Assembly: GCA_964373805.1 (NCBI GenBank)
Contig: CAYJWF010000001.1
Coordinates: 47,181 to 111,180 of the forward strand
Origin: an uncultured Planctomycetia bacterium
Lineage (GTDB): Bacteria > Omnitrophota > Gorgyraeia > 1-14-0-20-64-10
Length of the DNA: 64,000 bases
Direction: 5' to 3'
Shown here: in pieces, positions 3,096-55,600 of the stretch
Position numbering within the stretch: the stretch's first letter is position 1
How the letters are laid out: every line of letters begins with the position of its first letter
Made by a program: the position numbers and the translations under genes
Notes under the pieces: generated by a model
What the model was told of the DNA's origin: nothing
What the model saw: only the letters and a program-made list of their open reading frames with translations
Database searches by the model: none

Positions 3096-5574
3096 CCGAT
3101 CCCTCCATCTCCAATTGGATGAGCCGGTTGAGTTCCACCGCGTACTCGAGCGGCAGCTCCTTGGCGAATGCCTCAAAGAAGCCGTTCACAATCATCGTGG
3201 TCGCCTCCTGCTCTTTAAGTCCTCGGCTCATCAGGTAGAACAGCTGCTCCTCCCCCACCTTGCTCACCGTCGCCTCGTGTTCGATCCGCACCTGTTCGGC
3301 ATCAATCTCCATGGTGGGATAGGTATCCGATCGGGAGATTTCGTCCATCAGCAACGCATCGCAGCGAACCGAAGATTTCACATGCTCGGCCTGAGGATAG
3401 ACCTTCACCAACCCTCGGTAGCTGGTGCGGCCGCCGTCTTTGGAGATCGACTTTGACAGGATCGTGGAGCTGGTTTCTGAAGCGGCATGAACCATCTTGG
3501 CTCCGGCGTCTTGGTGCTGGCCCTTGCCAGAAAACGCCACCGAAACGACTTCCCCTCGGGCCTTGCGCCCCATCAAATAAACCCCGGGGTACTTCATGGT
3601 CAGCTTTGAGCCCAAATTTCCATCGAGCCATTCAACGATCGCATTCTCATAGGCGATGGCCCGTTTTGTGACCAGGTTGTACACGTTCTTTGACCAGTTC
3701 TGGATTGTCGTGTATCGGATGTGCGCGTGGGGCATGGCCACGAGCTCCACCACCGCCGAGTGAAGGCTGTCGGACGAATAGGTAGGAGCCGTGCAGTTGT
3801 GGACGGCAAAACCACGAGCCAGGTAAGCGTTCGGCGCACGGTCCATCTCGATGTTAAAGACCGGTCCTTCATAAGGAGCACGTCGAATTTCTTTCACCGG
3901 TACAAGGAAGGAATCTCCTTGGCGGCGGACTTCACCCATCTGCCTATTGGGGGAATAATAAATGATGTACTGATCCTGCCGAGTTATGGGTCGCCCCAGG
4001 ATCGTATCCTTTCCTCCTTTACGTAAGGAGATGGTTGCGTAATGGCCTTGACGTGCCAGAAGCTCCTGGAGCTGTCGAGCCAAGTTCAAAGAAACAGTCG
4101 AAGCGCGGAGCATGGTATGGGCTCGCCGATACCAACTCCCATCCCCCAGAAAGTACGTCTCCAACAGATGAGCCTGTTTCTCTGGTGGAAGCTCCATGAT
4201 CGTCTTGCTCAGCTGCTTCGTCGATGCCCCTTTGCCGCAGCTTTCAAGGCAAAGCTCCCTGAGAGGGCGGGAGTAGACTACCACGTTAATTCCATGTTTC
4301 TTGCGGTCTACGACTTCCATAGCCCGCTTGCCCGTCACCTCGCGAATAAGTTTCTTGGCCTCTTCCACCAGGGCCCGGTCTGTGGAGCCGAATGAGAGTG
4401 CGACAACCGGCATCCGCAGGGTCTTGTGGACAAACGTAGATCCTTCGGCCAGGTAGTAGCCTAGGAGGCGCAGAGCAGGTACGGTGTACCGAGGATCATC
4501 TTGGGTCTTCTTTGGGATTGGGAAGACGATGAAATCTCCTCGCTGAAGTTTGCCCGCTTCTATGAAATGGGGTTCCGTTGTAAGAAGCTTGGAGGTGCTC
4601 ACCTCTCCAAGCCAGTGGCCGCGCGCTTTCCGGGCGACGCGAACATCCTCTCGCTGGACACCCAGCACAGGGTGCTCCGGTGTGAGGCGAAAGCTGTTTC
4701 CAGAAGACAGTGGCTGGATCGTGATCAGCTCGCCACGGTAGGGACGCACGCGACTGGCCGCAACCTTTGCCTCCTCACCGTTACTGTTCAAAACGCTGTC
4801 GCCTGGCTGGATCGATTCGATGTTTACCCAGCGTTGGCCGGTAGAAACCTGTTCGCCTGCAGGCAGGCATCCCTCTATGTAATGCACGCTGGATCCCTCG
4901 TCGGCGATGATCAAGGTCCGTTCGAACTGGCCCATGTTCTCCGCGTTGATTCGGAAATAGGCCTGCAAGGGAATGGCTACCTTCACCCCTTTCGGAACGT
5001 AGATAAAGCTTCCTCCCGACCAGACCGCGGAGTTTAAAGCGGAAAACTTGTTGTCCGCTGAGGGGATCACCGTGCCAAAGTACTTTTTCACCAACTCCGG
5101 ATATTTCTTGAGGCCATCGTCCATCCCAAGGAAGATGACCCCTTGTTTCTCGAGATCTTCTCGAAGAGAGTGGTACACGACCTCAGACTCGTATTGGGCG
5201 GTGACCCCCGCGAGGAACTTCCGTTCCGCCTCTGGGATTCCCAATTTTTCAAAGGTGTTCTTGATATCCTCGGGAACCTCCTCCCAGCTTTTCTCCTGTT
5301 TATCCACCGGCTTCAGGTAGTAATGGATGTTGTCGAAGTGGATCTGGGAAAGGAGCGTCAAATCGGCCCAGGCCGGTAAGGGCTTCCGGTTGAAATGTTC
5401 CAGCGCCTTTAATCGAAGTTCCCGCATCCAATCCGGTTCCGACTTCATCCAGGAGATCTCCTCCACCACTTCCTTGGAGAGGCCCTTCTTGGCCTTGAAG
5501 AGGTAATGCTCCGGATCGTGGAATCCGTACTTCTCTTCGTAGTCTTTCCCGATATTGAGCGGTTTATCCGTCAT
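3088..5574 (-). CDS. sufB: Fe-S cluster assembly protein SufB interrupted by an intein (extein 470 aa + intein 358 aa)
   Basis: 828 aa instead of ~470; SufB N- and C-terminal halves; conserved EGC|TAP site split by insert beginning CLPAG and ending VHN followed by CTAPTYSS. Confidence 0.9.
3796..4869 (-). mobile_element. intein with LAGLIDADG homing-endonuclease domain inside sufB
   Basis: Insert residues 236-593: N-terminal Cys (codon 4867-4869), C-terminal His-Asn (3796-3801) followed by +1 Cys (3793-3795); two LAGLIDADG motifs [10 protein letters not shown] and [10 protein letters not shown]; exteins rejoin to canonical SufB ...[13 protein letters not shown]... Confidence 0.85.
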
Positions 5575-10875: not shown

Positions 10876-10947
10876 GGGGTCAGACCTGTACCAGGTACAA
10901 AATCGGCTCAACTTTTAAAAAGTTAGGCCCAAATTGTACCTGGTACC
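10876..10947. repeat. MITE-like palindromic element (GGGGTCAGACC + GTACCAGGTAC ... AACTTTTAAAAAGTT ... GTACCTGGTAC)
   Basis: Terminal inverted 12-13-mers around AT-rich central palindrome; near-identical copy at 48459-48521. Confidence 0.7.
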
Positions 10948-25889: not shown

Positions 25890-27503
25890 ATGCCGACACT
25901 AACCATTGACGGCAAGTCGATCACCGTGCCGGAGGGGACGACCGTCATTCAGGCGGCCGAAAGCCAAGGGATCTTCATCCCTCGGTACTGCTACCATCCG
26001 GGGCTTTCCATCGCGGGGAACTGCCGAATCTGTCTCGTGGAGATCGAGAAGAACCCCAAGCTGCAGATCGCCTGCAACACCCCGGTCGTCGAGGGAATGG
26101 TGGTCCGCACAAACTCCCCTCGGGTTTCGCAGGGCCAACAGTCGGTGCTCGAGTTTCTCCTCATCAACCACCCGTTGGACTGCCCGGTCTGCGACCAGTC
26201 CGGCGAGTGCGACCTTCAGAACTTCTACCTCAAGTACGGGCTGTACGATGCTCGGTTTAGGGAGCAAAAGGTCAAGAAGCCGAAGGTCGTTCCCATTGGC
26301 CCGACGGTGATGTTGGACGCCGAGCGTTGCATCCTCTGCTCCCGATGTGTCCGGTTTACCGATGAGATCACGAAGACCGGGGAGCTCGGGATTTTTAACC
26401 GCGGTGATCAGGCCGAGATCGGGCTGGGGCCGGGCAAGGTTCTGGACAACCGATATTCCGGCAACGTGGTGGACATCTGCCCGGTCGGGGCCTTGACCGA
26501 CCGGGATTTCCGGTTCAAGGCACGGGTCTGGTATCTTTCCACCTCGCCATCGATCTGCAACGGTTGTTCCCAAGGATGCAACATCGAACTCCATGATGTG
26601 CTCGATCGGCCGCATTTGAGCGGGGGCGCCCGGGTGATGCGGATAAAACCGCGGTATAACGCCGAGGTCAATCAATGGTGGATCTGCGATGAGGGCCGCT
26701 ACGGTTATAAATTCATCGACCAGGACCGCCTGCGGAAGGTACTTCGCCATGGAGTGGAGAGTTCCTGGGAAAAGGCGTTGTCGGAGTTGGCCGAGGGCTT
26801 AAGACAGGTCCATCTGGAGGCCGCACCGCATCGATTAGGGGTACTTCCATCGGCCCAACTGACCCTGGAGGAGCTGTTCCTCATCCGAAAGCTGTTCAAG
26901 GATCTTCTCGGGGTGCCGTATTGCACAGCGGATGTCCCAGCCCGGCCAGGGTATGCGGACGATTTTCTCATCAAGGCGGATAAGAACCCCAACACCCGAG
27001 GGGCGACTCTTCTGGGTTTAGCGGGCGAGGGGGTTCCTCCGGCTGCCCAGGTGATCGAGGAGATTCAAGCCGGTCGAATCAGAGCCCTCTGGGTCTTTGG
27101 CCACGATCTCGTGGAGCTGTTCGGGGAGGCCCTGGTTAAGGATTTGGCAAAAAGGCTATGCGTATTTATCTTTCAGGGTTCCAACGTGAACGGAACCGCT
27201 CGCTACGCCCATTGGGTCCTGCCCAGCGCCGTGTATGCCGAGAAGGAGGGGACCTTTGTGAACGTCCACGGGCGCCTCCAGCGGATCTTTCAGGCCTTTG
27301 AACCCCTTCCAGAGGCTCGATCCGATAGCGAGATTCTTCTGGATCTGTTCGATCACCTGAACCTGCCGGTTCCGGGCCGGACGGCAGAAGAGATCTTCCA
27401 CGCGGTGGGGGAGGCGGTACCCATCTTCTCGGGGCTCACCTACGAGAAGATCGGATTGCAGGGAACACAACTGGTGAACTCGTCATTGCGAGGAGCGAAG
27501 TGA
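25890..27503 (+). CDS. nuoG: NADH-quinone oxidoreductase subunit G (short form)
   Basis: N-terminal 2Fe-2S and 4Fe-4S Cys clusters (CYHPGLSIAGNCRICLVE, CPVCDQSGEC, CILCSRCVRF). Confidence 0.8.
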   Translation: MPTLTIDGKSITVPEGTTVIQAAESQGIFIPRYCYHPGLSIAGNCRICLVEIEKNPKLQIACNTPVVEGMVVRTNSPRVSQGQQSVLEFLLINHPLDCPVCDQSGECDLQNFYLKYGLYDARFREQKVKKPKVVPIGPTVMLDAERCILCSRCVRFTDEITKTGELGIFNRGDQAEIGLGPGKVLDNRYSGNVVDICPVGALTDRDFRFKARVWYLSTSPSICNGCSQGCNIELHDVLDRPHLSGGARVMRIKPRYNAEVNQWWICDEGRYGYKFIDQDRLRKVLRHGVESSWEKALSELAEGLRQVHLEAAPHRLGVLPSAQLTLEELFLIRKLFKDLLGVPYCTADVPARPGYADDFLIKADKNPNTRGATLLGLAGEGVPPAAQVIEEIQAGRIRALWVFGHDLVELFGEALVKDLAKRLCVFIFQGSNVNGTARYAHWVLPSAVYAEKEGTFVNVHGRLQRIFQAFEPLPEARSDSEILLDLFDHLNLPVPGRTAEEIFHAVGEAVPIFSGLTYEKIGLQGTQLVNSSLRGAK

Positions 27504-27560
27504 CGAAGCAATCCCGTTTTAAGGACGAGATTGCTTCGCCCCTGCGGGGCTCGCAATGAC
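27483..27560. repeat. REP-like repeat, inverted pair between nuoG and nuoH
   Basis: gtcattgcgaggagcgaagtgacgaagcaatc ... gagattgcttcgcccctgcggggctcgcaatgac; supplies nuoG TGA and nuoH ATG. Confidence 0.8.
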
Positions 27561-28638: not shown

Positions 28639-29382
28639 ATGCCGCGTAAACGGGAACTGACGTTCTGGGAACGAATTTACCTACCGGAGATTGTCCGGGG
28701 GGTGTGGATTACCTCTCGTCACTTCTTCGTTAATCTCTTTCTCCACACGGCACATCTCTTTGGGCTGTTCAAGGACCGCGCGGCCTCGGTCACCTTTCAG
28801 TATCCGGAGCAGCCCCGACCGTTGGCTCCCCGTTTAAGGACTCGGCATCGGTTAACGGTTCGGCCAGAGCCCCGCGCTGACGCGCGGGACTTTTCTGGAT
28901 TGGCCGCTGACGCAGCGGCTGGCGCTGTCGGAAGCGCCACCACGCGCTCCGGCGCAGCCAGAAACATAGAGGAAGGGACTCCCCGGTGTGTGGCCTGCAT
29001 GCTCTGCGAGACGGTCTGCCCGGCCAAATGCATCACGATCGTCGCTGGAGAGCACCCGGATCCGAACGTGGAGAAATATCCGATTCGGTTCGACATTGAT
29101 TTAGGGGTCTGCGTCTACTGCGGCTACTGTGTCGAGGCCTGTCCGGAGGATGCCATTCGGATGGACACCGAGATCCTGGACATCGCCGCCTATTCTAGGG
29201 CCCAGATGAAGCTGGACATCCATGAGCTCATGGATCCCAAGCTGCGCAAGCCGGTGAACCAGTGTGAACTAAGGTTTCCACACCAATGCGCCCTGCACGG
29301 TGGTCAGATGAAAGGGAACTGGCAAGACGTCTATGGGAAAACGGAACAGGGACTGTCCCCGCAGGGGACTGTCCCTGGCTAA
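28639..29382 (+). CDS. nuoI: NADH-quinone oxidoreductase subunit I with in-frame ~35-aa repeat-encoded insert and C-terminal extension
   Basis: Two 4Fe-4S motifs CVACMLCETVCP and CVYCGYCVEACP; insert PRADARDFSGLAADAAAGAVGSATTRSGAARN between N-terminal segment and first ferredoxin motif. Confidence 0.8.
   Translation: MPRKRELTFWERIYLPEIVRGVWITSRHFFVNLFLHTAHLFGLFKDRAASVTFQYPEQPRPLAPRLRTRHRLTVRPEPRADARDFSGLAADAAAGAVGSATTRSGAARNIEEGTPRCVACMLCETVCPAKCITIVAGEHPDPNVEKYPIRFDIDLGVCVYCGYCVEACPEDAIRMDTEILDIAAYSRAQMKLDIHELMDPKLRKPVNQCELRFPHQCALHGGQMKGNWQDVYGKTEQGLSPQGTVPG
28866..28972. repeat. single copy of the same ~105-bp palindromic element, in-frame inside nuoI
   Basis: gagccccgcgctgacgcgcgggacttttctggattggccgctgacgcagcggctggcgctgtcggaagcgccaccacgcgctccggcgcagccagaaacatagagg. 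Confidence 0.8.
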
Positions 29383-29385
29383 AAT

Positions 29386-30387
29386 ATGCGTTATCGAGAA
29401 CTTGCCAAGAGTGGTTTAAAACTTTCCGAGATCGGGTTCGGGGTCTGGACCGTCTCCACCACCTGGTGGGGAGTCAAGGAGGAGTCGGTCGGCGTCGATC
29501 TGCTGCGGAAGGCTTTCGATCTGGGGATCACCTTTTTTGATACCGCCGATACCTACGGTAACGGGCTGGGGGAGACGATCCTAGCGAAGGCGCTGGGAGA
29601 CAAAAGAGATCAATTCGTGATCGGCACCAAGGTCGGCTACGATTTCTATCACCACACCGGCCGAAGAGGGCAGGAGGAACTCCCCCAAGATTTCTCGTCC
29701 AACTATCTCGAGTTTGCTTTAGGGGAATCGCTCAAGAGATTGGGGACAGATTGCGTCGACCTGTATCAGCTCCACAACCCGCGGATCGATGTGATTGAGC
29801 GCGACGAGGTGTTCCAGACCCTTGAGCGTTTCAAGCGGGAAGGGAAGATCCGAGCCTATGGGGCCGCCTTGGGGCCGGCCATCGCTCCTCGGCAGATCGA
29901 AGAAGGAAAGGCCGCCATTGCCCGAGGATTCAATTCGGTCCAGATCATCTACAACCTCTTGGAACAGATGTTGGGGGAGGCCTTGTTTCCGGCGGCCCAA
30001 GGGAGGGATTCCAGTTTCTTGGTACGGGTGCCCCATGCCTCCGGCCTTCTCGATGGGACGGTGACGCGCGAGACCACCTTCTCCGAGACCGATCACCGGT
30101 ATCATCGGGTCTCGACCGACGATCGAAAGCGGCTCTGGCAGGAAGAGGGGTTAAAGAAGGTGGAGCAACTGTCATTCCTCACCGAGGGAACCAGCCGGAC
30201 CTTAGGCCAAGCAGCCTTGAGATTCATCTTAAGCGAACCGACCGTGGCTTCGGTCTTGCCCAACCTCTACAACGAACAACTCCTCACCGAATTCGCCGCT
30301 GCAAGCGACGTTGCCGATCTTTCTTCAGAGGAGCTGGCCCGAGCCGTGGCTGCGGCTAGAGGAAGCCGCACCACTTGTAAGCTCTGA
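29386..30387 (+). CDS. aldo/keto reductase family oxidoreductase
   Basis: [11 protein letters not shown], ...GASGLL AKR motifs. Confidence 0.75.
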
Positions 30388-30448
30388 GTCGCCCAGCTTC
30401 AGGCCTCCTAAGCTCGGAGCGGCCACCTCGAAGATTTGTAGAGAAGTA

Positions 30449-30476
30449 TTGACAATTTAAAGTACCACTTTAGAAT
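30449..30476 (+). promoter_or_regulatory. sigma70-like promoter TTGACA-N16-TAGAAT giving a leaderless transcript of the ATPase gene
   Basis: -35 30449-30454, -10 30471-30476, ATG at 30484; AT-rich context unlike surrounding DNA. Confidence 0.5.
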
Positions 30477-30483
30477 AGCATAT

Positions 30484-31704
30484 ATGTATATCCATCGTTT
30501 ACTGGAGAAAACCTTAAAAGAGGCCCTCGCGTCATTTCCTGTCGTCTTCATAGGCGGTCCGCGGCGTTCAGGGAAGACCACGCTGGTGAAGCAGCTTGTC
30601 CCACGGTCCAGGTATGTGCTTTTGGATGAGATGGATGTTCGTGCCTTTGCTTCAGAAGACCCGAAAGGGTTCTTGGACGCGAATCCGCCGCCGGTCATCA
30701 TGGATGAGATTCAAAACGTTCCACAACTCTTGCCCTATATCAAAGCGCGGGCAGACAAAGACAAAAAGCCCGGGCAGTGGGTATTGACCGGCTCACAGCA
30801 GTGGGCGCCTATGAAAGGCATCGGCGAAACTCTGGCCGGTCGAGTCGCTGTGCTGCACCTTTATCCATTCTCTTTGACGGAAATACAGAAAAGAGCCGCG
30901 ACTCAGCCTGAAGGAATTGAAAAGCTCATGGAATATTTTGAGCGGGCGGTGCCTCGGCCGCAAAAAGCGGTTGCGCTGGGTGATTGGATCTTAAAGGGTG
31001 GATATCCGGAAGTCGTGCTTGGCAAAAGTACCTCCCGTAAATTGTGGTTTTCAAGTTACATGCAGACCTACATTGACCGGGATGTTCGCGGAAACATCAA
31101 GGAAATCAACCTCAGGGACTTCGAGCGGTTTGTCCGGCTTCTTGCGGCCAGATCCGCGCAGCAACTTAACGCCTCAACTCTTGCCGGGGACGTCGGAGTA
31201 ACCGTCCCCACCATCAAGGCATGGTTGACTCTTTTGGAGGCCGGCGGCTTGATTTTCTTTTTGATGCCTTATCATAGGAATTTTGGCAAGAGAGTGATCA
31301 AGGCGCCAAAGTGTTATTTCATGGATACCGGTCTTATCTGTTATCTTGTCGGGATCAAAGATGGGCTATCCGCCCTACGGGGTCCGATGGGAGGCGCTCT
31401 TTTTGAGACTGCGTGCGTCTCTCAAATGTATAAACGCCTTGCCGCGATGGGGGAGGAGAGGGCGCTTTATTATTTCCGGAGCCATGACGGTCTGGAGATC
31501 GATATGCTGATTGAACGGCCACAGCGCTGTTATCCCATTGAAATCAAGCTATCTTCGACTATCAGCAGTCAGCAGGCGTGGGGTATCAGGAGATGGATGG
31601 AATTGAGCGGAGACAAAAAACAAACCGGGTTCGTTGTGTCAACGGCTAAGGAATTGGGCATAGTGGCATCAGGGATACGCAATATCCATTACAACCTCTT
31701 ATAA
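30484..31704 (+). CDS. AAA+ ATPase with DUF4143 domain
   Basis: Walker A GGPRRSGKTT, Walker B VIMDEIQ; architecture of the ATPase/DUF4143 family. Confidence 0.65.
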   Translation: MYIHRLLEKTLKEALASFPVVFIGGPRRSGKTTLVKQLVPRSRYVLLDEMDVRAFASEDPKGFLDANPPPVIMDEIQNVPQLLPYIKARADKDKKPGQWVLTGSQQWAPMKGIGETLAGRVAVLHLYPFSLTEIQKRAATQPEGIEKLMEYFERAVPRPQKAVALGDWILKGGYPEVVLGKSTSRKLWFSSYMQTYIDRDVRGNIKEINLRDFERFVRLLAARSAQQLNASTLAGDVGVTVPTIKAWLTLLEAGGLIFFLMPYHRNFGKRVIKAPKCYFMDTGLICYLVGIKDGLSALRGPMGGALFETACVSQMYKRLAAMGEERALYYFRSHDGLEIDMLIERPQRCYPIEIKLSSTISSQQAWGIRRWMELSGDKKQTGFVVSTAKELGIVASGIRNIHYNLL

Positions 31705-31708
31705 GAAT

Positions 31709-31748
31709 CAGGGGGACGCTCCATTTGGGGACACTCTACTGTGGAAAG
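31709..31748. repeat. 40-bp direct repeat copy 1 flanking the AbiE cassette
   Basis: cagggggacgctccatttggggacactctactgtggaaag; ~92% identical to 33075-33115. Confidence 0.7.
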
Positions 31749-31836
31749 AGCCTGCATTTTCCACAAGGGTCTGTCCCTTTTTGATTGAGTTATTTATCAT
31801 ATCAGTATACAATATTGTATACCACTGGTTTAATTT

Positions 31837-32394
31837 ATGAACAATTCAGAGCGGTTAAAAATACTCATGGAATCCGGAAGGTCGATATTTACGCCTCTGG
31901 ACATGCGCCTGTTGTGGCAGATGAATGCCTTGAGCGCCAAGATCAGCGCTGTGCGGATGGTGGAAAATGGGCTCATGATGAGGTTGGCCAATGGCTATTA
32001 TGCTCTGAATGATCGGTATAACCCGTATGAACTCGCCAACCGCCTGGTCTCGCCTTCCTACGTCTCGTTTCAGGCCTCTCTTTTTCACGCGGGGATCAAT
32101 TTTCAAGCGCGTCGGGAGATCGGATCCGTGGCGACTCGAGACCGCCAAAGGAAAGTGGGGGACGTCCTTTATACCTATGCCGCCATGAAGAAGGAGTTGT
32201 TTTTCGGCATGGAAGGTGTGGTGACTCGCGAAGGCGTGTCGATAGCGAGCCCTGAGCGCGCGATCCTGGACAGTTTTTACTTCGGGTATTTACCGGATAT
32301 CGACGATGCCGGAAAATTAAATAAAACCACTTTGGCGAAATTAAGCGCTGGGTACCCTAAGACCGTTCAAAAGAAGGTGAAAAATCTTTTATGA
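31837..32394 (+). CDS. AbiEi-family antitoxin (type IV TA transcriptional regulator)
   Basis: 185 aa, precedes and overlaps an AbiEii-like NTase gene; AbiEi-like N-terminal wHTH region. Confidence 0.5.
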   Translation: MNNSERLKILMESGRSIFTPLDMRLLWQMNALSAKISAVRMVENGLMMRLANGYYALNDRYNPYELANRLVSPSYVSFQASLFHAGINFQARREIGSVATRDRQRKVGDVLYTYAAMKKELFFGMEGVVTREGVSIASPERAILDSFYFGYLPDIDDAGKLNKTTLAKLSAGYPKTVQKKVKNLL

Positions 32395-33140
32395 GCCGCT
32401 TGTTTGAACGGGACACGCATAAAAGGTATCTTGCGCTTTTACTGACAGAGATGGCAAAGGCATTTCCTGAGAAGATCGCGTTTAAAGGCGGCACCTGCGC
32501 TCATTTTTTTTACAACCTTCCGCGATTCTCATTTGATCTGGATTTCGATATGGTCCGAGCCTTTAAGGCCGTCGATGTCGATCGATTCCGTGAGCTTGTG
32601 GAAAAACATGGACAAGCGAAGGATTTTTATGACAAGGCAAACACCTTATTTTGCCTTTTTGATTACGGGAAAGGCTATCCCAATATCAAAATCGAGCTGA
32701 ATAAGCGTGTGTGGACCCATAATGTTTATAAACCCGTCTGGTTGATGGGGGTGCCGATTTCTATTGCGGATGAAACCACGGTTCTTACGAATAAGCTGGT
32801 CGCGCTCACGGATCGAAAGACCGCGGTCGCGAGAGACTTATACGATATCTGGTACTTTTTAAAGGCGGGGTTTCCGGTCCACGATGCCCTTGTCCTCGAG
32901 CGCACCGGCAAGGATGCCCGAACCTATTTGGCATCCATCACCGCGTTTATCAAGAAAACCTATACGCCCCGTAACGTGTTGCACGGGCTGGGTGATGCGC
33001 TCGATGAAAAACAGAAGGCTTGGGCAAAGGATCATCTTGTTTCAGAAACCATACAGGAGATCAATCGGCGTGAGTCGGGGGGACGCTCCATTTTGGGACA
33101 CTCTACTGCGGAAAGAACCGCGTCCCCATCGCCACCCTAA
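32391..33140 (+). CDS. AbiEii/AbiGii-family nucleotidyltransferase toxin (DUF1814)
   Basis: FKGGTCAHFFYNLPRFSFDLDFD NTase core; C-terminal 20 codons read through direct repeat copy 2. Confidence 0.6.
   Translation: MSRLFERDTHKRYLALLLTEMAKAFPEKIAFKGGTCAHFFYNLPRFSFDLDFDMVRAFKAVDVDRFRELVEKHGQAKDFYDKANTLFCLFDYGKGYPNIKIELNKRVWTHNVYKPVWLMGVPISIADETTVLTNKLVALTDRKTAVARDLYDIWYFLKAGFPVHDALVLERTGKDARTYLASITAFIKKTYTPRNVLHGLGDALDEKQKAWAKDHLVSETIQEINRRESGGRSILGHSTAERTASPSPP
33075..33115. repeat. 40-bp direct repeat copy 2
   Basis: tcggggggacgctccattttgggacactctactgcggaaag. Confidence 0.7.
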
Positions 33141-33249
33141 CGACTCCCCCAGCGGCTGCGGCTGAAGGAGGCCGCACCACGGCCCTCGGGCCGGTGGCTT
33201 ATGCGGTTAAGGTGAAAGGGGTCGGGACGACCTGGCACCTTAAGGCGCC

Positions 33250-38326: not shown

Positions 38327-38848
38327 TTAAAGGGGTCGGGTCGACCTGGTACCTTTGGCCAGCACGATTGCCCCGATGATCCCAACGAGGAGGAGCCCGG
38401 AGGCCACCTCAAACGGCAGTGCGTAGGTGGTAAACAGCAGCTTCCCAACCGCCGCGGTGGTTCCAGGAACTGGAGGACCTTGACCAGTCCACGGCACAAG
38501 CGGGATCCAGCCCATCTTGGCGACGAGGATCAGCTCTCCGAGGAAGAGGAGTCCTACCAAGGTTCCGGTCCCCCTCAAGGTTCCCCCTTTCATCCGGAAC
38601 ACCCTTTCCGGGGCCAGGTCGAGCAGCATCACGACAAAGAGGAACAGGACCAGGATTGCCCCCGCATACACCAGGATCTGGACGATCGCCACGAAGTAAG
38701 CCTGAAGCAGAACGAAGAGACCGGAGAGGGCCAGAAAGGTCCCCACCAGGCTCAACACCCCATAGACCGGGTGCCGGGCCAAGATCACCCCCAAGGCACT
38801 GGCCACCATCACGGTGGCTAGACCGTAGAACACAGTAGGATGCCCCAT
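38327..38848 (-). CDS. nuoJ: NADH-quinone oxidoreductase subunit J
   Basis: NuoJ-like TM helices (…LVYAGAILVLFLFVVML); start moved to ATG 38848. Confidence 0.75.
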   Translation of the reverse strand: MGHPTVFYGLATVMVASALGVILARHPVYGVLSLVGTFLALSGLFVLLQAYFVAIVQILVYAGAILVLFLFVVMLLDLAPERVFRMKGGTLRGTGTLVGLLFLGELILVAKMGWIPLVPWTGQGPPVPGTTAAVGKLLFTTYALPFEVASGLLLVGIIGAIVLAKGTRSTRPL

Positions 38849-44253: not shown

Positions 44254-44322
44254 GAGATTGCTTCGTTCCCATTGCGGAGTTTACCCTGAGAGCCATCGAA
44301 GGGCTCTGGGTCCTCGCAATGA
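44254..44322. repeat. REP-like repeat, degenerate inverted pair between MBL-hydrolase gene and folB
   Basis: gagattgcttcgttcccattgcggag ... gggtcctcgcaatgac. Confidence 0.6.
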
Positions 44323-46244: not shown

Positions 46245-46679
46245 ATGACCCGCCCTCCGGTGTTCATGAAAGGAAATCCTGATCTTGGGTATGGACATCC
46301 TAGGCCCTCCGGTGGGACGGAGTTGTACGCCTGGCTCTTCATGCGGCTCTCCGGGATTCTGCTGTTGGTGTTGGCCCTCGGGCATTTCTTCATCATGCAT
46401 CTTTTTAACAGCGTTCACACCATCGACTACGATTTTGTCGCGGCCCGGTACCTGGGACTTTTCTGGCGTGGCTATGATCTCGCCCTGCTGTGGCTGGCGA
46501 TGATCCACGGGATCAATGGAGCCCGCATGCTGGCCGACGATTACCTGCGTCCACCGGTTCGAGGGTGGGTGGTGAAGGGGCTGTATCTCGTGGGAATTTT
46601 GTTTCTGGTGTTGGGCACTTGGGTGATTGTAGCGTTCCAACCGATGGTGCCAGGCACCAAAACCCTGAAACTTTTATAA
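46245..46679 (+). CDS. sdhD: succinate dehydrogenase membrane anchor subunit
   Basis: 144 aa hydrophobic; position between sdhC and sdhA; last codons read into repeat. Confidence 0.65.
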   Translation: MTRPPVFMKGNPDLGYGHPRPSGGTELYAWLFMRLSGILLLVLALGHFFIMHLFNSVHTIDYDFVAARYLGLFWRGYDLALLWLAMIHGINGARMLADDYLRPPVRGWVVKGLYLVGILFLVLGTWVIVAFQPMVPGTKTLKLL

Positions 46680-46691
46680 AGTTAAGCCAAA

Positions 46692-46705
<14 letters not shown>
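46646..46705. repeat. MITE-like element: GGTGCCAGGCACC ... AACTTTTATAAAGTT ... GGTGCCAGGCAC
   Basis: Spans sdhD stop and sdhA start; supplies ATGGTGCCAGGCAC = MVPGT. Confidence 0.7.
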
Positions 46706-48458
<1,753 letters not shown>

Positions 48459-48521
48459 ATGGTACCAGGTACAATTTCGGCTCAACTTTTTAAAAGTTAT
48501 ACCGATTTTGTACCTGGTACC
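48459..48521. repeat. MITE-like element (GGTACCAGGTACA ... AACTTTTTAAAAGTT ... TGTACCTGGTACC)
   Basis: Between sdhA stop and sdhB; near-identical to 10887-10947. Confidence 0.75.
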
Positions 48522-48540: not shown

Positions 48541-49239
48541 ATGCAAGTAACCTTTAAGATTCTACGGTTCAATCCCGAGCAGGACCCCAAGCCGCACTGG
48601 GAGACCTACCCGGTGGAGTTGGAGCCGACCGATCGGGTGTTGGACGGCCTGGAGGCGATCAAGGGACGGCTGGATGGGACCTTGGCCTTGCGGCGCTCCT
48701 GCGCCCACGGGATCTGCGGCTCCGATGCCATGCTGGTGAATGGCCGGAATCGGTTGGCCTGCAAGGTATTGGTTAAAAATTTAAAGCAGCCGATCGCCAT
48801 TGAACCGATGCGGGGTTTTAAGGTTTTGAAGGACCTGATCGTTGACATGGAAGGTTTCTTTGCCAAGTACCGATCGATGAAGCCGTATCTGATCGAGGCC
48901 GGCCCAGCCCCAGAAAAGGAACGGCTTCAGTCGCCGGCCGAACGGGAACGGTTCGACGACACCACCAAGTGTATCCTCTGTGGGGCCTGCACGACCAGTT
49001 GCCCCTCTTTCTGGTCCAATCCGGATTATGTGGGACCGGCGGCGATCGTCCAGGCCCATCGGTTTCTTTTCGACAGCCGTGACGAGGGGAAGGAAGAGCG
49101 CCTGAAGGTTTTAAATACCTCGGATGGCGTCTGGCGCTGCCGAACGGTCTTTAATTGTGTGGAAGCCTGCCCGCGCGGCATCAACGTGACCCGCGCCATC
49201 GGCGAAGTGAAACTCGCGCTCATGAGTGCGTCATTGTGA
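48541..49239 (+). CDS. sdhB: succinate dehydrogenase iron-sulfur subunit
   Basis: CAHGICGSDAMLVNG, CILCGACTTSCP, CVEACP clusters; start ATG 48541; stop inside REP-like repeat. Confidence 0.85.
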   Translation: MQVTFKILRFNPEQDPKPHWETYPVELEPTDRVLDGLEAIKGRLDGTLALRRSCAHGICGSDAMLVNGRNRLACKVLVKNLKQPIAIEPMRGFKVLKDLIVDMEGFFAKYRSMKPYLIEAGPAPEKERLQSPAERERFDDTTKCILCGACTTSCPSFWSNPDYVGPAAIVQAHRFLFDSRDEGKEERLKVLNTSDGVWRCRTVFNCVEACPRGINVTRAIGEVKLALMSASL

Positions 49240-49263
49240 GGAACGAAGTGACGAAGCAATCTC
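49228..49263. repeat. REP-like repeat copy at sdhB stop
   Basis: gcgtcattgtgaggaacgaagtgacgaagcaatctc. Confidence 0.75.
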
Positions 49264-49478
49264 GGTTTAAGGGATCGCCCGCCCCGGCCCCTGGTTCCCA
49301 AGCCGGGCCGGGGAGTCGGCCTGGCACCTTTGGGCCAGAGGCCTTCCCTCCGGCGTCTCCCCCCGACAACACGCAGCGTCACCTCTACTGCCCCACGTGC
49401 GGCCAGCGTCTCACCAATCGCTCGTGCAAATGGTGGTGCCCGACCTGCGGCTACCACGAATCCTGCGCCGATGGCTAA
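49249..49478 (+). CDS. small zinc-ribbon protein (uncertain)
   Basis: C-terminal CPTCGQRLTNRSCKWWCPTCGYHESC; possible GTG start inside repeat; mostly low-complexity. Confidence 0.3.
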
Positions 49479-49637: not shown

Positions 49638-52600
49638 ATGCGAAATCGAATCGTAGCTGGTTTAACCGTTCTAGCATTCCTGCTTGGCCAAACGCCCGCC
49701 TACCCCTTTGACCACGGGGAAGGAGGGAAGCGTCCCGGCTTTGGGTCAGCCGTTCTTCGCCCTCTCAGCCCGGATCAGTCGGATTGGATGAGGCAGGCCA
49801 TTGAAGCCGGTTTGGAGGAGCCCGCCGGAGAAGAAACGCGCTCGTTTGAGGAGCTGCTTTTAGAGATTCTGGACGAGGAGAAAGCCAGAAACCGCTCCAG
49901 CCGGGATTCAAAGAGACTGTTGAATCGGTTTGTGGAGTTTTTTGAAGAGGATGCAAGGAGCGGTTCTTCGGTGCCCGAGACTGTGACTGTGGAGGCAAGG
50001 GCCAGGAGGATCTTATTAAGGCAGACCCCCGGAGTAACCGTGGCTAAATTACGCCAAGAGACAGACAACCCCAGTAAGAGGTTTTCCCTTCGGAACCTTC
50101 CGGGAAGGAAAGGGGAAATGGCCTTGCCTAACGTATGGGTCTTGCGGGAACAGGTAGCAAGGACTGCTCGGATTCTCGAGGGGTTAAAGATTACCCAAGA
50201 CAAGGGGCCTATCTCCGAGCCTCCTACTTTAGAATCAACCCTGACACCTACAGAGTACTTAGCTAGGTTAAGAACGCACCTGTTCTATTCCAACCAACAG
50301 CAACAGTACCTTTCGGTCCCGACGTACGGGGTCGTTGGTTTTTTTGATCCGGAGGAATACCGCCGCGCGGGAGAAGAAACACCCTATGCGGTTTTACCTG
50401 TCTTGGCCGTCCGACAAATCGGCCTTCAGCCTTCCCTCCGAGCCTTTGACTTGGCCATCGGAATGGTGGACAACGGGCTCAAGAAGGTCGAAATGCGAGA
50501 ATCGGGAACCGACCATCCGCCTTTTCTTCTTCTCCACTTTGCAAGGCCACTGATCGATGCCGAAAGCGGCCGGAGAGGTCTGGACCGGCTGGCCGTTTTT
50601 CTGCTCAAGACACCCTGGCCTGAGCTTCCCAAGTTGGCGGGGGATAGACCGCTTGAGACTCTTCCCGATGAGGAATTTCTTAACGCGGTTCTGCAATCTT
50701 TACTGGCGGAGAGAGAACATCTCGAGCAGGACGCGGGACGGCTTCGGCAGATTGCCTTTGAGGAAGGGGAACCGGTTTCTATTCAGATAGAGAAACGGGA
50801 ATCCCTTCTCCGGTTAGCCCTAGCGGAGAGGCTTGTTCCTCGGTCAGGCTATCAACCTTACACGGCAGCCAGCGCCGTGAGACTCGCTCGGTGGATGGGC
50901 CGAACCGTGAGGGAGAGGCAGTTCATCCGACAGCATATGGAGTTGTTGATAGAGGAGGCGAACCTGATCGAGGCCTCCGGAGCTGTGACGTGGAGTCGTT
51001 CGTCTAAAACGGAGAAAGCCATAGAGGCACTTTGGGAGAGGTTTCACCGGTGGAAGAGGCGCACAGGGATTTTGCAAGAGCTTGGGACCTTGGATCTGGC
51101 TGAGATCCCGGGGGCTGCAGAAAGGGTTGAGCAGCTCGACAAGAAGCTTCTGATTCCTAAAAAGGACGTTTCGATGGAAGCTTGGCGGCTGTATCTGCCG
51201 TTGCTTCGGCTGGTTCTTGCCAGAGATTCCCTGGGCCAATGGGTGCTCAACGACCAGGAGGCTACCTACCTGCTCAATCGCATGGAAAAATTCCGTCAGG
51301 AGTTGCTGAATGGGGTTCTCGTGATGGAGAGAACGTTAGCCTCGATGACCCCGGGAGAGGCTCAGGCGATCCTATCTTTTGAACTTAACCAGGCACTTCT
51401 TGACCCGCTGATTCAGAAACCGCTGAAAACCCCTCGGGTGACGCTGCAAAAGGCCCTGCTGAAGGAATGTGAGCGGTTGTTCCAGGTTTCTTTGGGCAGG
51501 TCCCCCACGGCTTTGGCCCTGTTAAGAGACGAGCGAGAGGCTTTATTCAAAGAGGTTCGCCAGGTTCAGGGCAGATTCTGGGCCAGCCTTCTGGGGAACT
51601 TGTCGGAAGCAGAGAAGGCTCTGACGGAGTTCGAGCGACTGGATGAGCGTTTGAGGGCGTTCGGTCCGCGGCTTGCAGGCAGGGACGTAGGGGTGGCTTC
51701 GGAGGGCGGCGGCGTGCCACCCCTACCACTGTCTCAAGAAGGAATTTTGTCTTTCCTAGACAGGATGAAGGAAAAGATAACAACACCAGCGAATTTGGGA
51801 CGACTGGAAAATCCTTCTGGGCTTGATCTGTACCGATCCCTTTTGGATATCGCCCGGCTCGTCCCAGAAGGCCGTGTGAGAGAGGCTTTCGAAAGGAGCC
51901 GGTTGGATGCAGCGATCTCGCTGGAGGAATGGGAGCGGCCCTTTTTGGGTTCGTTCCGGCGGAGACTGGCTGAGCGGATTGCCCAAGAGGTCCTGGAGGA
52001 TGCCCAGACCGCTCCGCCAACACAGCAGAAGGCAGCCGAACAGCGGATCTTAGAGGCAGCGGAACTGGTAGGGGAGTTTCCACAGATCGCAGGGAAACTT
52101 TTAACCACCGATCGGGCCAAGGCGAAGGCTTTACTCTCGGCTTTTACCACGGAATTGTCGGATAAGGGAAACCGGCTCCTTCGAGAATTTGTAGTGGCTA
52201 AGGCCAGCCGGGAACCTTTCCCAGAAGCCAAGGAGGATAAGCTCAGAAAACGTTACCGCAGTCTCCATTCCGGTAGAGGAGTCCCAACGCTGTACGAACG
52301 GGTAGCCTTGGATCTGGATCCCTCCCTTCTTCCCAACCGACCCATTCCTTCCGGATCGGTTTCGCCAACGATTGTAAGGAAGGAAGATTCCACCGCCGGC
52401 CTGGAGGAGAAAAAGGGCGGTTCCATTTTGGATAGGGAAGGGGAGAAGCAGATCCGCGAGGCCACTCAGGCATTAGACGGAGCCCTCCACCCCATTGGGA
52501 ACCCGGTCGTTTTTTTCTCCAAGGTCGAAGCTGCGGTCGTTTTTTTCTCCAAGGTCGAAGCTGCGCTGAAGGCCATTGGAGAAGTGCCTTCTTCTCGATG

Positions 52601-55600
52601 GCCTAACCTTTTTCAAGAGGAGTTTAAACGACTTAGGGATCAATTGAGAATTGCCGAGAGGCATCCTGACCAGAAGGAGTTTGCCCAGAGGATGCGGCAC
52701 TCCCTCTCTGATTTTCGGGACCGGTGGAACAGGTCTCTTGCCCAAGAGGGAATTTCGTCTGGCCGGGAACAAAAGCCCGCCAGTGAGAAAAAGGTCGATG
52801 GGGGAATTATCCCTCAACAGAGGCCTTTGCCTAAGCGACCATCGAAACGGCAGCGGATCATTGAGGAGCTGTCGCGGTTGCCGGATGAGAGAAAACGTCT
52901 CAAATCCCTTCGCCTGGCGGCTGGATTTCGGTCTCCCCATGAGTTAGAAAAAGCAGCCGGGGTGGCCTGGGCGACGGTATCCCGAATGGAATCCGGCAAG
53001 CGAGGAATCGGTCCCCACGTCAGGCGAAAGGTGAAAGGGCTATTGGAAAAGGAGTTGGGTCTACGACTGACGTTTCACTTCCGTTTGATAGAGTTTCCTT
53101 TAGAGCGCAGTGTCAATGTCTTGCCGACGACCGAGGATCGGTTTACTTTCCTCAAGGACGAACTTCTGGGATGGACCAAGCAAGAACTCGCTCAGCGAGC
53201 GAACGCCATCAGGAGTCTCCCTTCTCCTGCTTTGGACACGCGCTACCGCCATGCGCCGATGGATCAAACCCATTTCTGGATTCGGCGTTCCATCCGGGAT
53301 GCTCTGGAACGTGGTTTATCGGAGGAGTTTCAACGCCCTGTACGGCTTGACGGACGTCTTCGGATTGTTACGAATTCGGTTGCCGGGCATCTCAGAGCTT
53401 TGCCCAATGCCGAGGCGCGTCTGACCTGGTTGTTGGAGGAGGAACTTGTCTGGTATCGGAGCGAATTTCTTAGAGAAGCGGGGTTCAAAGAGCATGGGAA
53501 GGTACAGCCCCCTCCGAATCAGCAATCCCAGGCGTTGCAGAGGTGGGAGAAACTCCGTCGCGCGCTCGAGCGAGGTTTGGCCAAGCGGGGAGAGCAGATT
53601 TCTCTTGATGCCAACTTGCTCCCTCAGACCGGCCTGGAGGAACGGAACCAGAGCAGACCCAGTGGGTTGGACCTAGGGCAACAGGTGAGGCGGCTGGTGG
53701 ATACGGCGAAGGGGTTAGCCTCCTCCGGACAGGAAGGGGATGCCCTAGGGGTGCTGGATGAGGCGCTTCGGTTAGATCCTGAGAATGCCCATACCTTGGT
53801 GGAGAAGGCGAGCCTGTTGGACCGACGGCGGAGCTTAAGAAAAGCCCTTCAGGCCATTAATCGAGCCCTCTTGATCGATCGCCGTCGCATCCGTGAACTT
53901 GGGATCGGCCCGATTCGTGGTCGAGATAAATCTGGACGTATTTATCTGGTCATCCGAACGATTCGGGCAAGGATCCTGTTTCACTTAAGTCAACAAGAAA
54001 GGGATCCGACGCAGCGTCTTCATTTCCATCGAGGAGCAGAGAATTCGGTTAAGCAGGCCCTCCAGTGGGATCCGACGGATCCTTGGGCGGTGAAACAAGC
54101 GGTTCAGATCATTCATAGGCGTCCAGTGGAGCACGAGAGCTATGAACAAAGGTGGGAGGATGCCCAGGAAGTGGCGGCTCCCCTCTTGGCCAGAGTGGGC
54201 AGAGGGGAGTTTCGAGAGGAAGATGACCGACTTTCTATTGCACAGATACTTCATGATCTCAAGTGGACCGAGAGAATGGTTACGTTTCTTGAGGAAACGG
54301 TGTTACCCCAGAACCCCGGGTGGCCTCCAGCGTTAAAACTCTTGAGTGAGGGAAAGCGCGATTTAAATAAACCCACCGCTGGTTTGGAGGAGCGGTGGGT
54401 GCGTGTGATTGCCGACGATGCCACGGGTGGCGCGGAGTTGGTGTTGGAGCTCGCCAAGAGAGGTAAGAGGGCCCTTCTCGTCTCTCTGGACACCCCGGAT
54501 AAGCTTCTCAAGCGGTATCGGGTTATTGTGTACAACACCCTGGCTCGGAATCTGTCTCCCCGAGAGACGCGCCTTCGCACAGGCCAGGTCAAGGGTTCCA
54601 TTCTTCAACCGGGAGAGTGGGCCTACCTTAAGATCGATTCGACCCTCCGTGGGAATTGGCTGGATGGGATCATCGCCTGGACCAAGAGGCTTCAACCGGA
54701 GGTGATCTTGGTGGCGCCGGCCATTGTTTCACAGGGAAGAGCGACCCGACAGGGAGTCCATGAACTCCTCGAGGGAGGGAGTTGGATCCCCCTGCATCAA
54801 ACCATGTACCGTGACCTGATTGATCCGGGACTGGTTCAATCAGAATCCAATCTTCAGGAATATCTGCGGCAGCGGGTCTCGGCGAAGGTGGAGCTCCTCA
54901 ACCGAGAGGTCATTGAGCAAGGGTCTGAAGAGGTTCGCAAACGGCTCGCCGGTGTGGAAAAAGGGACTTACCTCGTGGCGGATGCCACCGAGAGCCGACA
55001 CCTTGAATCCATAGCTGAAGCTGTCCATGAGCTTCCCCGACCGATCCTTTGTTCCGGTTCTGCCGGCCTCTTCGGCACCCTGGTCAAGGAAGAGAAATCG
55101 GTTGAATTAGTGCCCTGGGTGGAACAGCTCATCAAAAAGACTTCACGGGGCAGAGGGAAGGTGTTGGTACTGGCCGGCTCTCGTCACCCAAGATCAGACG
55201 AACAGGTCAGAAGAGCTCTCGAGAGTCTTCCGGGTCGCGTGGCCCTGCTGAAGATTTCCACGGAAGGCTTCCAAAGAAGGCAGACTCGAGCTGCTGGGAT
55301 TCGGCGTGCCCAGCGGAAGATCCATCGAGCTTGGCAGCAGGCCCAAGGTGTCATCCTCCAGTTCGAGCCGCCGCGTCTTAAGAAACGGAGCCACCAAACA
55401 CAGCGTGCCATGGCGGAATTTTACCGTGAACTGTTCGGCACAAGGGAGATTCAAGGTCAGCTCGGCCTTCTCGTTGTTTTTGGGGGAGACACCTTGGGTA
55501 CAGTTCTAACGGGCTTCCAAGCCGGGTTTACCGCTACAGGAGAAGTGGCTCCTCAGATCTCTTACGGGCAGCTCATCACCATGGATCGACCGCCTTTGCC

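Follow-up and report, generated by a model that had tools for sequence, protein, structure and literature searches.

Direct repeats around an AbiE cassette are probably decayed members of a REP/REPIN family in Candidatus Omnitrophota

The subject of this analysis is a pair of direct repeats that bracket an AbiEi/AbiEii gene cassette in a 64-kb stretch of DNA (hereafter the window, meaning the whole stretch analysed; contig CAYJWF010000001.1, positions 47,181 to 111,180) from an uncultured bacterium of the GTDB lineage Omnitrophota. The two repeats are probably decayed members of a family of repetitive extragenic palindromic (REP) elements and of REP doublets forming hairpins (REPINs), dispersed in Omnitrophota by a REP-associated tyrosine transposase (RAYT), and neither attachment (att) sites nor parts of the AbiE module. 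Other genomes of the phylum contain the repeat family, which flanks RAYT genes there; the repeat is absent both from other AbiE cassettes and from the corresponding empty site in a related genome. A sequence-only reading of the window had suggested instead an att-like duplication left by site-specific insertion, or a repeated regulatory unit.

The two copies lie at 31705-31752 and 33072-33119 (48 nt, 90% identical, at a spacing of 1367 nt in a repeat search of the window), which bears out and slightly extends the direct repeats of about 40 bp that had been placed at 31709-31748 and 33075-33115. A 39-nt core, GGGGGACGCTCCATTTGGGGACACTCTACTGTGGAAAGA, occurs without mismatch at 31711 and with two mismatches at 33078; there is no third match on either strand of the 64 kb, and the core was matched in none of 100 dinucleotide-preserving shuffles. 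The positions relative to the genes are also as first described: copy 1 starts right after the stop codon of an ATPase gene (TAA, 31702-31704), and copy 2 falls within the final 22 codons of the 249-codon abiEii open reading frame (ORF; 32391-33140).

Copy 1 consists of a REP arm (31711-31741, + strand) with the half-sites GGGGGACGCTCC and GGGGACACTC followed by TACTG, and of the remainder of a REPIN (31740-31782, + strand) that comprises a spacer hairpin, a degenerate inverted inner half-site, GGGTCTGTCCC, and a run of T. Comparison with an intact doublet from another Omnitrophota genome (locus L001) shows that the outer inverted half-site is absent. The hairpin reported behind copy 1 exists, but its stem has 8 bp (TGTGGAAA/TTTCCACA, 31740-31747 and 31758-31765, around a 10-nt loop) and not the 9 bp quoted for it; a terminator-like match, also a weak hairpin, lies at 31765-31779. 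As single-stranded DNA, copy 1 folds with -12.8 kcal/mol (z -1.95). Copy 2 (33078-33127, + strand) has its REP arm at 33078-33108, a short spacer and a terminal complement, GCGTCCCC, at 33120-33127. This outer complement is the sole inverted part kept, so that the copy has the form of a short, internally deleted REPIN of the type seen in another Omnitrophota locus (L005); its 8-bp terminal stem is intact, yet it folds no better than shuffled sequence (z -0.18). Judged by the REPIN literature (PMC3116915), the weak folds and the missing parts of the inverted arm would mark both copies as decayed remnants.

Both copies keep the full arm, with two GGGGACNCTC half-sites 15-16 nt apart, and both have the spacer CCATTT where the family consensus has CCCCAAA, followed by a common continuation, TACTGYGGAAAGA. 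Because they share this spacer and continuation, the two are sisters within one subfamily. An Rfam scan of 29-35 kb (E<=1) gave no match, nor did a blastn comparison of the surrounding insert with plasmids or a search of viral contigs with the repeat pattern. A divergent REP-like arm, GGGGACGTCCC-TGAA-GGGGACACCCC, lies on the - strand at 46782-46807. It falls within the N-terminal portion of the ORF (46692-48458) for a succinate dehydrogenase/fumarate reductase flavoprotein, and appears to add a short segment of 11 residues to that protein.

The repeat family and its transposase in Omnitrophota

A scan of a genome collection that holds one genome for each of 185,579 species, made with the 20-base degenerate pattern GGGGACNCTCNNNNNNGGGACNCTCTAC, returned six loci, four of them in metagenome-assembled genomes (MAGs) of Omnitrophota and two in coding tandem repeats (of a high-GC Chloroflexota and of Frankia). 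In the other Candidatus Omnitrophota genomes the family, with consensus CCTGGGGGACGCTCCCCAAAGGGACACTC, is sited between housekeeping genes, in loci with a GC content of 0.42-0.44, and 28.6 kb of these loci contain 19 half-site matches in the spaces between such genes. The repeat thus behaves as a generic REP at unrelated loci (near rml genes, tyrS, an S1-protein gene and priA, and flanking RAYT genes), the very finding that the sequence-only reading had named as telling against an att-like duplication.

Among 16 copies the consensus arm is AACCTGGGGGACGCTCCCCAAAGGGACACTC, often with TAC next to it, which reads as GTAG on the opposite strand; the arm can be summarised as CCTGGGGGACGCTCC(4-5 nt)GGGACACTC. 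In L001 the elements are about 120 nt long and have inverted terminal arms, CCTGGGGGACGCTCCCC-NNN-GGGGACACTC and GGGGAGTGTCCC-TTT-GGGGAGCGTCCCCCAGG, around an AT-rich spacer; their neighbours are rmlB, rmlD, rmlA, a PQ-loop gene, tyrS and the S1-protein gene. Inverted doublets that give long hairpins are found at 2985-3115 and 5086-5208 in L001, at 64-160 in L003 and at 295-354 in L005, the last being a short doublet of 60 nt in the priA region. The folds of the L001 doublet (-38.3 kcal/mol as single-stranded DNA, z -8.6) and of the L005 doublet (z -5.6) are far better than those of shuffles. At the rml sites orthologous to those that hold a full doublet in L001, L003 has single arms only, as decay at shared sites would leave them, and a full doublet of L003 lies elsewhere.

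In form the family also recalls the Correia elements and other miniature inverted-repeat transposable elements (MITEs) of Neisseria and the palindromic elements of Rickettsia, which are likewise non-autonomous, about 100-150 bp long and bounded by terminal inverted repeats of about 26-30 bp. The likeness extends to insertion at gene ends, where such elements supply stops or starts and extend reading frames: ORFs upstream of the L001 elements terminate about 49 nt within the element, and abiEii in the window runs into copy 2. Unlike Correia elements and MITEs, the family is associated with a Y1 transposase and not with a DDE transposase. The L001 form has terminal inverted repeats with no direct duplication visible at the flanks; these continue the palindrome, so that a target-site duplication is not apparent.

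The enzyme was found in a further locus, L004, where a 199-aa ORF (4754-5353) between two inverted arms of this repeat encodes a Y1_Tnp protein (Pfam, 63 bits). Its top NCBIfam match is NF047646, REP-associated tyrosine transposase (74 bits, E 1e-20, against a curated cut-off of 80), whereas the IS200 model gives 27 bits (cut-off 55); an HUH motif (HLH) and the motif YIERNP can be read in the sequence, and a sequence comparison with solved structures gave no match. Homologues are widespread in Omnitrophota, nearly all of 195-196 aa, and most protein clusters are represented on one contig each. Four loci chosen by the protein alone and not by the repeat (L080, L082, L084 and L085) encode orthologues with 81, 69, 85 and 56% identity to the L004 protein, and in all five loci inverted arms flank the RAYT gene. 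The 11-mer GGGGACGCTCC, with at most one mismatch, occurs nine times in the 29 kb of protein-chosen RAYT loci, where 0.47 occurrences are expected. The arm drifts in step with divergence of the transposase, reading GGGGACGTTCC beside the 56% orthologue.

The gene occupies a common syntenic site in L004, L080, L082 and L084, after an operon for E/F-pseudopilin components of the type II secretion system, and a tRNA-like sequence, judged by eye, lies downstream of it in L080, L082 and L084. The RAYT region spans 4649-5407 in L004 (about 3880-4660 in L080, L082 and L084), and a DUF4143 ATPase gene comes next in L004. No RAYT is encoded within the 64-kb window.

On sequence grounds, this combination of a repeat and a transposase flanked by it appears to be the defining architecture of a REP/REPIN-RAYT system (PMC3116915, PMC5581495). 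Such systems have been described in Pseudomonas and Enterobacteria, as REPs and bacterial interspersed mosaic elements (BIMEs) (Bertels & Rainey, 2011, PMC3116915; Bertels et al., 2017, PMC5581495; Messing et al., 2012, PMC3479197). The Omnitrophota family shares with them a short palindromic repeat dispersed after genes, inverted doublets that form long hairpins, singlets that resemble decayed doublets, an apparently single, syntenic Y1/HUH transposase with inverted flanking copies, a repeat that drifts with the transposase lineage, and many arms with a 5' GTAG on the opposite strand. It differs in that its arm is made of two tandem mini-palindromes, GGGGA-CGC-TCCCC and GGGGA-CAC-TCCCC, in its phylum, Candidatus Omnitrophota, and in a transposase of about 196 aa that falls just below the curated RAYT cut-off; the window itself, moreover, shows just two decayed copies and no RAYT. 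A search of the literature found no link between Candidatus Omnitrophota and REP or RAYT, and the family appears so far to be undescribed in this phylum.

The existence of a cognate Y1 enzyme in the phylum bears on a different view of the pair, in which REP-AbiE-REP would be a single-strand transposon of the IS200/IS605 kind, comparable to palindrome-associated transposable elements (PATEs), with same-strand hairpin ends recognised by a Y1 enzyme and AbiE as cargo. Y1 transposases act on same-strand subterminal hairpins, as in IS608, and the copies around AbiE do stand in the direct orientation that the subterminal hairpins of Y1 elements have. Such a transposon is nevertheless highly unlikely here, given that both ends are decayed, with folds no better than those of shuffled sequence, that RAYT genes are flanked by inverted and not by direct copies, and that the cassette moves without these ends. 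No second REP-AbiE-REP unit was found in the window, in plasmids, in viral contigs or in 62 metagenome loci.

The AbiE cassette and the islet that holds it

The gene pair between the repeats is, to judge by its sequence, a true AbiEi/AbiEii pair and a predicted type IV toxin-antitoxin system, and the gene calls of the sequence-only reading were correct. abiEi (31837-32394, + strand) encodes an antitoxin and presumed autorepressor of 185 aa, which has no Pfam match and was identified through PADLOC (AbiEi, E 6e-28). abiEii (32391-33140, + strand), which overlaps it by 4 nt, encodes a nucleotidyltransferase toxin of 249 codons (Pfam PF08843; PADLOC AbiEii, E 7e-45). AbiE was reportedly described by Dy et al. 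in 2014 as a type IV toxin-antitoxin and abortive infection system with AbiEi and AbiEii as its components. The pair in the window resembles the AbiE type IV system in its bicistronic, overlapping genes (ATGA), its AbiEi-family antitoxin, its DUF1814 nucleotidyltransferase toxin and its palindromic promoter operator; it is unlike that system in the 22-aa foreign tail of the toxin and in the replacement of the native -35 element, and the flanking repeats are no part of the system.

Both of these departures lie where the cassette meets the repeats. The promoter/operator (31785-31822, + strand) reads TTGAGT-17-TACAAT and overlaps a perfect palindrome, GTATACAATATTGTATAC (31805-31822), of which the GTATAC-N6-GTATAC pattern is kept in every cassette relative. 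Other cassettes keep a TTGACA -35 element, whereas in the window the end of copy 1 occupies the -35 position and TTGAGT can be read as a substitute. At the other end, AbiEii homologues have 228-235 aa and cover 91% of the query; conservation stops at ...QEINR (about codon 227, 33071), beyond which the tails differ, and the last 22 residues of the window's protein are read from copy 2. DNA homology with more than 20 other contexts runs from 31791/2 to 33061-33072, precisely where the repeats begin, and since it spans only 31791-33072 the AbiE pair can be taken as a discrete, horizontally moving unit.

The repeat does not travel with that unit. In the closest long contigs, L007-L012, AbiEi is 83% and AbiEii 86% identical to the window's proteins, and the repeat arm has zero matches in cassette loci L007-L013 and L018-L079. 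Altogether it is absent from about 17 close relatives of the cassette (89 kb) and from 47 more distant AbiEii loci; the 11-mer that is enriched near RAYT genes is found, at the same tolerance, once in the 89 kb of close relatives, where 1.45 occurrences are expected by chance.

The cassette lies in an islet of 2.9 kb that is specific to the window (30338-33246, no strand assigned), between an aldo/keto reductase gene and the nuoN stop; GC is 0.49 in the islet against 0.57 in the window, dropping from about 0.59 to 0.43-0.54 between about 30.4 and 33.1 kb. Alignment to L014, a related MAG whose reductase is 81% identical, breaks at 30337 and resumes at 33247. L014 has an empty site, in which the reductase gene adjoins nuoN directly, the two sharing 4 nt. 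At the same junction in L015, L016 and L017 (82% identical) there is a different insert, located at about 8.3-11.8 kb in L015, whose ORF of about 1100-1160 aa has no Pfam match. Because L014 is empty and L015-L017 carry another insert, 30338-33246 is an islet in a variable spot, and the other ORF in these relatives indicates that the reductase-nuoN spot repeatedly accepts foreign DNA. Around the islet, nuoH, nuoI and the reductase gene (+ strand) converge on nuoN, nuoM and nuoL (- strand). All close homologues of the reductase that have a named source come from Omnitrophica, in keeping with a Candidatus Omnitrophota host.

Upstream of AbiE the islet holds a gene for an AAA_14/DUF4143 ATPase of 406 aa (30484-31704, + strand; Pfam PF13173, PF13635; PADLOC PDLC04790, E 3.9e-108), which matches the PADLOC candidate defence gene PDC-S01. 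In L007-L012 a DUF4143 ATPase lies on the opposite side of AbiE and is 27% identical to the window's; with 83 and 86% identity for AbiEi and AbiEii and the ATPase on the other side, the ATPase does not belong to one unit with AbiE. The two gene orders, ATPase-AbiE in the window and AbiE-ATPase in L007, might have arisen by circular permutation of one unit of three genes, but this was ruled out, the two ATPases being just 27% identical. DUF4143 ATPases of various subfamilies (24-38% identical to the window's) adjoin AbiE in L007-L012, L034 and L036, in unrelated contexts. The relation between DUF4143 ATPase and AbiE is a loose defence-island association and not a fixed three-gene system.

These observations bear on the att reading, by which the repeats would be duplications of the attL/attR kind from site-specific integration of AbiE, or cassette sites like the attC of integrons. 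In its favour, a mobile two-gene module in a variable spot has a direct repeat of about 48 nt on each side, and the att sites of integrative islands are similar in this respect. Yet more than 20 other contexts have the cassette and lack the repeat, which is therefore not conserved with it; the repeat lies scattered among unrelated housekeeping genes and on either side of RAYT genes. Pfam assigned the genes of 27.5-38 kb to nuoH, nuoI, the aldo/keto reductase, the ATPase, AbiEii and nuoN/M/L, and found no integrase or recombinase among all genes of this interval, in the islet or beside it. A tRNA scan of the window found none, and therefore no tRNA-type att site. The comparison of empty sites that the sequence-only reading had proposed speaks in the same direction, since the repeat has no copy in L014, nor in the alternative-insert loci L015 and L017. 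An att-like duplication is accordingly very improbable. Integron attC sites were rejected separately: there are only two copies, no RYYYAAC/GTTRRRY cores appear on reading the repeat, and no integrase is found among the neighbouring genes, the rest of the window not having been screened for intI.

Arrival of the two copies at the cassette

The favoured reading assigns the repeats and the cassette to separate histories. The repeats would be short, non-autonomous palindromes spread in trans by a Y1/HUH RAYT that is itself single-copy; such elements settle in short post-gene spaces, which accounts for the position of the copies at the 3' ends of the ATPase gene and of abiEii. AbiE would be an independent mobile unit of a promoter and two genes that, with the neighbouring DUF4143 ATPase, forms the lower-GC defence islet. 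How and when the copies arrived, and whether they have any terminator or mRNA-stabilising role, we infer. They may have been carried in by the islet, acquired from an Omnitrophota donor of lower GC and rich in REPs, or REPINs may have transposed into the islet, where little space follows the ATPase gene and abiEii. If landing were uniform, the probability of a second copy within the same 2.9 kb of the 64 kb would be about 0.04. After arrival both would have decayed, and their present effects would be incidental: copy 1 would leave a weak hairpin and T run after the ATPase gene and would have overwritten the -35 element of the AbiE promoter, and copy 2 would have cost abiEii its native stop and lengthened it by 22 foreign codons.

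Several points weigh against this reading. The 64 kb holds only the two copies and the one divergent arm at 46782-46807, with no RAYT, which is too little to show a resident REP population in this genome. The spacer CCATTT and the continuation common to both copies are found in no other family member. The copies abut the limits of cassette homology precisely and in direct orientation, as would equally be expected if a stretch had been duplicated locally or if recombination had accompanied the cassette's arrival. With 74 bits, the RAYT stays slightly below the NCBIfam curated cut-off of 80. Finally, the repeat pattern itself served to find the four REP-bearing genome loci, which introduces an ascertainment bias.

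The same features can be explained by capture of the cassette through a REP. Circular or linear DNA with AbiE and one REP would have recombined, by RecA or through short homology, with a REP after the ATPase gene, leaving one hybrid copy on each side; the copies would still be REPs, and the direct pair would be the scar of arrival. This accounts for the direct orientation, for the copies standing exactly at both limits of cassette homology, for subfamily-specific changes common to both copies and unseen elsewhere, and for the complementary state of their 3' parts, copy 1 having the inner and copy 2 the outer inverted half-site. However, about 17 close AbiE relatives are without even one REP, so that the REP-bearing form of the donor is unseen, and the two copies differ from each other by 10%, a divergence close to that between the cassette and its relatives. 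Two REPs in the same orientation, 1-2 kb apart, moreover bracket plain housekeeping (rml) genes in L001 too. Capture of this kind is the main rival reading but, on balance, unlikely.

The position of each copy after a gene end, the two half-sites per copy 15-16 nt apart and the weak terminator-like hairpin behind the ATPase gene would also be expected of a locus-specific regulatory unit, that is, a terminator or a site bound by a protein that was copied behind each transcription unit and had no mobile origin. This is extremely improbable, because the sequence is dispersed in other genomes as inverted doublets that flank a transposase, is absent from all other AbiE operons, has no Rfam match and folds weakly. 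In E. coli, REPs can serve as hairpins at 3' ends, make mRNA more stable and influence translation close to stop codons. To that extent the suggestion of a repeated regulatory unit has a loose fit with what REPs do, but the copies are no part of conserved AbiE regulation. As decayed REP/REPIN elements they would act at present as a 3' hairpin or weak terminator at most.

Other repeats in the window and the meaning of the family

The islet is bracketed as a whole by another direct repeat of 27 nt, whose left copy (30348-30374, + strand, with the hairpin GGCTGCGGCTAGAGGAAGCCGCACCAC) lies in the aberrant C-terminal codons of the reductase and whose right copy (33154-33180, + strand) is 89% identical to it. 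Only these two copies occur within three mismatches, with 0 expected by chance, and the reductase C-terminus is without the ...ELYxSxFGL... motif found in all close homologues. The repeat might be a true junction duplication of the islet, or it might represent two members of a host hairpin-repeat family. The latter is suggested by a related 27-mer, present three times in nuoI and a sufBD-like gene, with similar flanks and with stem changes that look compensatory. A further 'member' in L005 was set aside as apparently protein-coding, on the opposite strand and probably due to chance. The reductase gene might once have ended in the DNA beyond the right copy, and the frame so restored does end overlapping the nuoN stop, as in L014; the restored tail is, however, without the conserved motif, like the present one.

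The window contains several more repeats. Just before the nuoN stop, a 27-nt sequence, AAAGGGGTCGGGACGACCTGGCACCTT (33215-33241, + strand), is 93% identical to 38329-38355 in the nuoJ/nuoK area, and the segment 33072-33250 is a patchwork of three different short repeats. A GC-rich in-frame repeat of about 110 nt occurs in nuoI (about 28865-28990) and in the sufBD-like ORF (about 2340-2560; ORF 1653-3176, - strand), where a perfect tandem duplication of 42 nt forms part of it; the repeat is translated as EPRADARDFS.LAA.AAAGAVGSATTR... and looks like an element that invades coding sequence in frame. NuoI has 247 aa in the window and 199-204 aa in relatives. A palindromic element of 60 nt, GTACCAGGTAC...AACTTTTAAAAAGTT...GTACCTGGTACC, has three copies (10888-10947, 46647-46706 and 48462-48521) and forms a separate intergenic family. 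A 44-nt repeat, CGTCATTGCGAGGAGCGAAGTGACGAAGCAATC..., is found at 27481-27524 and 49229-49272 (91% identical, both intergenic), with related pieces at 44303 and 45840. Apart from repeats, an ORF of 2835 aa (49638-58145) combines TPR repeats, four-carbon acid sugar kinase domains (SBD_N/NBD_C) and PdxA, and is either an unusually large fusion or several genes read as one.

With the two repeats read as REP/REPIN members, the att sites of a mobile defence cassette give way to an ordinary element, and a probable REP/REPIN-RAYT system, with its consensus arm, its doublet forms and a syntenic transposase locus, is documented in the uncultivated phylum Candidatus Omnitrophota. The aldo/keto reductase-nuoN junction emerges as a variable spot that takes up defence genes. 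For the annotation of Omnitrophota MAGs the family has a practical use, in that REP arms supply stops, extend ORFs and overwrite promoters and so mislead gene callers; the defined arm offers a handle for annotation that takes the repeats into account. It also opens the population dynamics of REPINs to study outside Proteobacteria. A further proposal, which we hold to be distinctly unlikely, is that REPs and REPINs serve in Omnitrophota as landing pads or portable ends for the capture or movement of AbiE and similar small defence cassettes. Such a route would involve recombination between REP copies, or action of the RAYT on two same-strand ends. If it were true, the family would be a domesticated transposase-repeat system with a role in the shuffling of defence genes.

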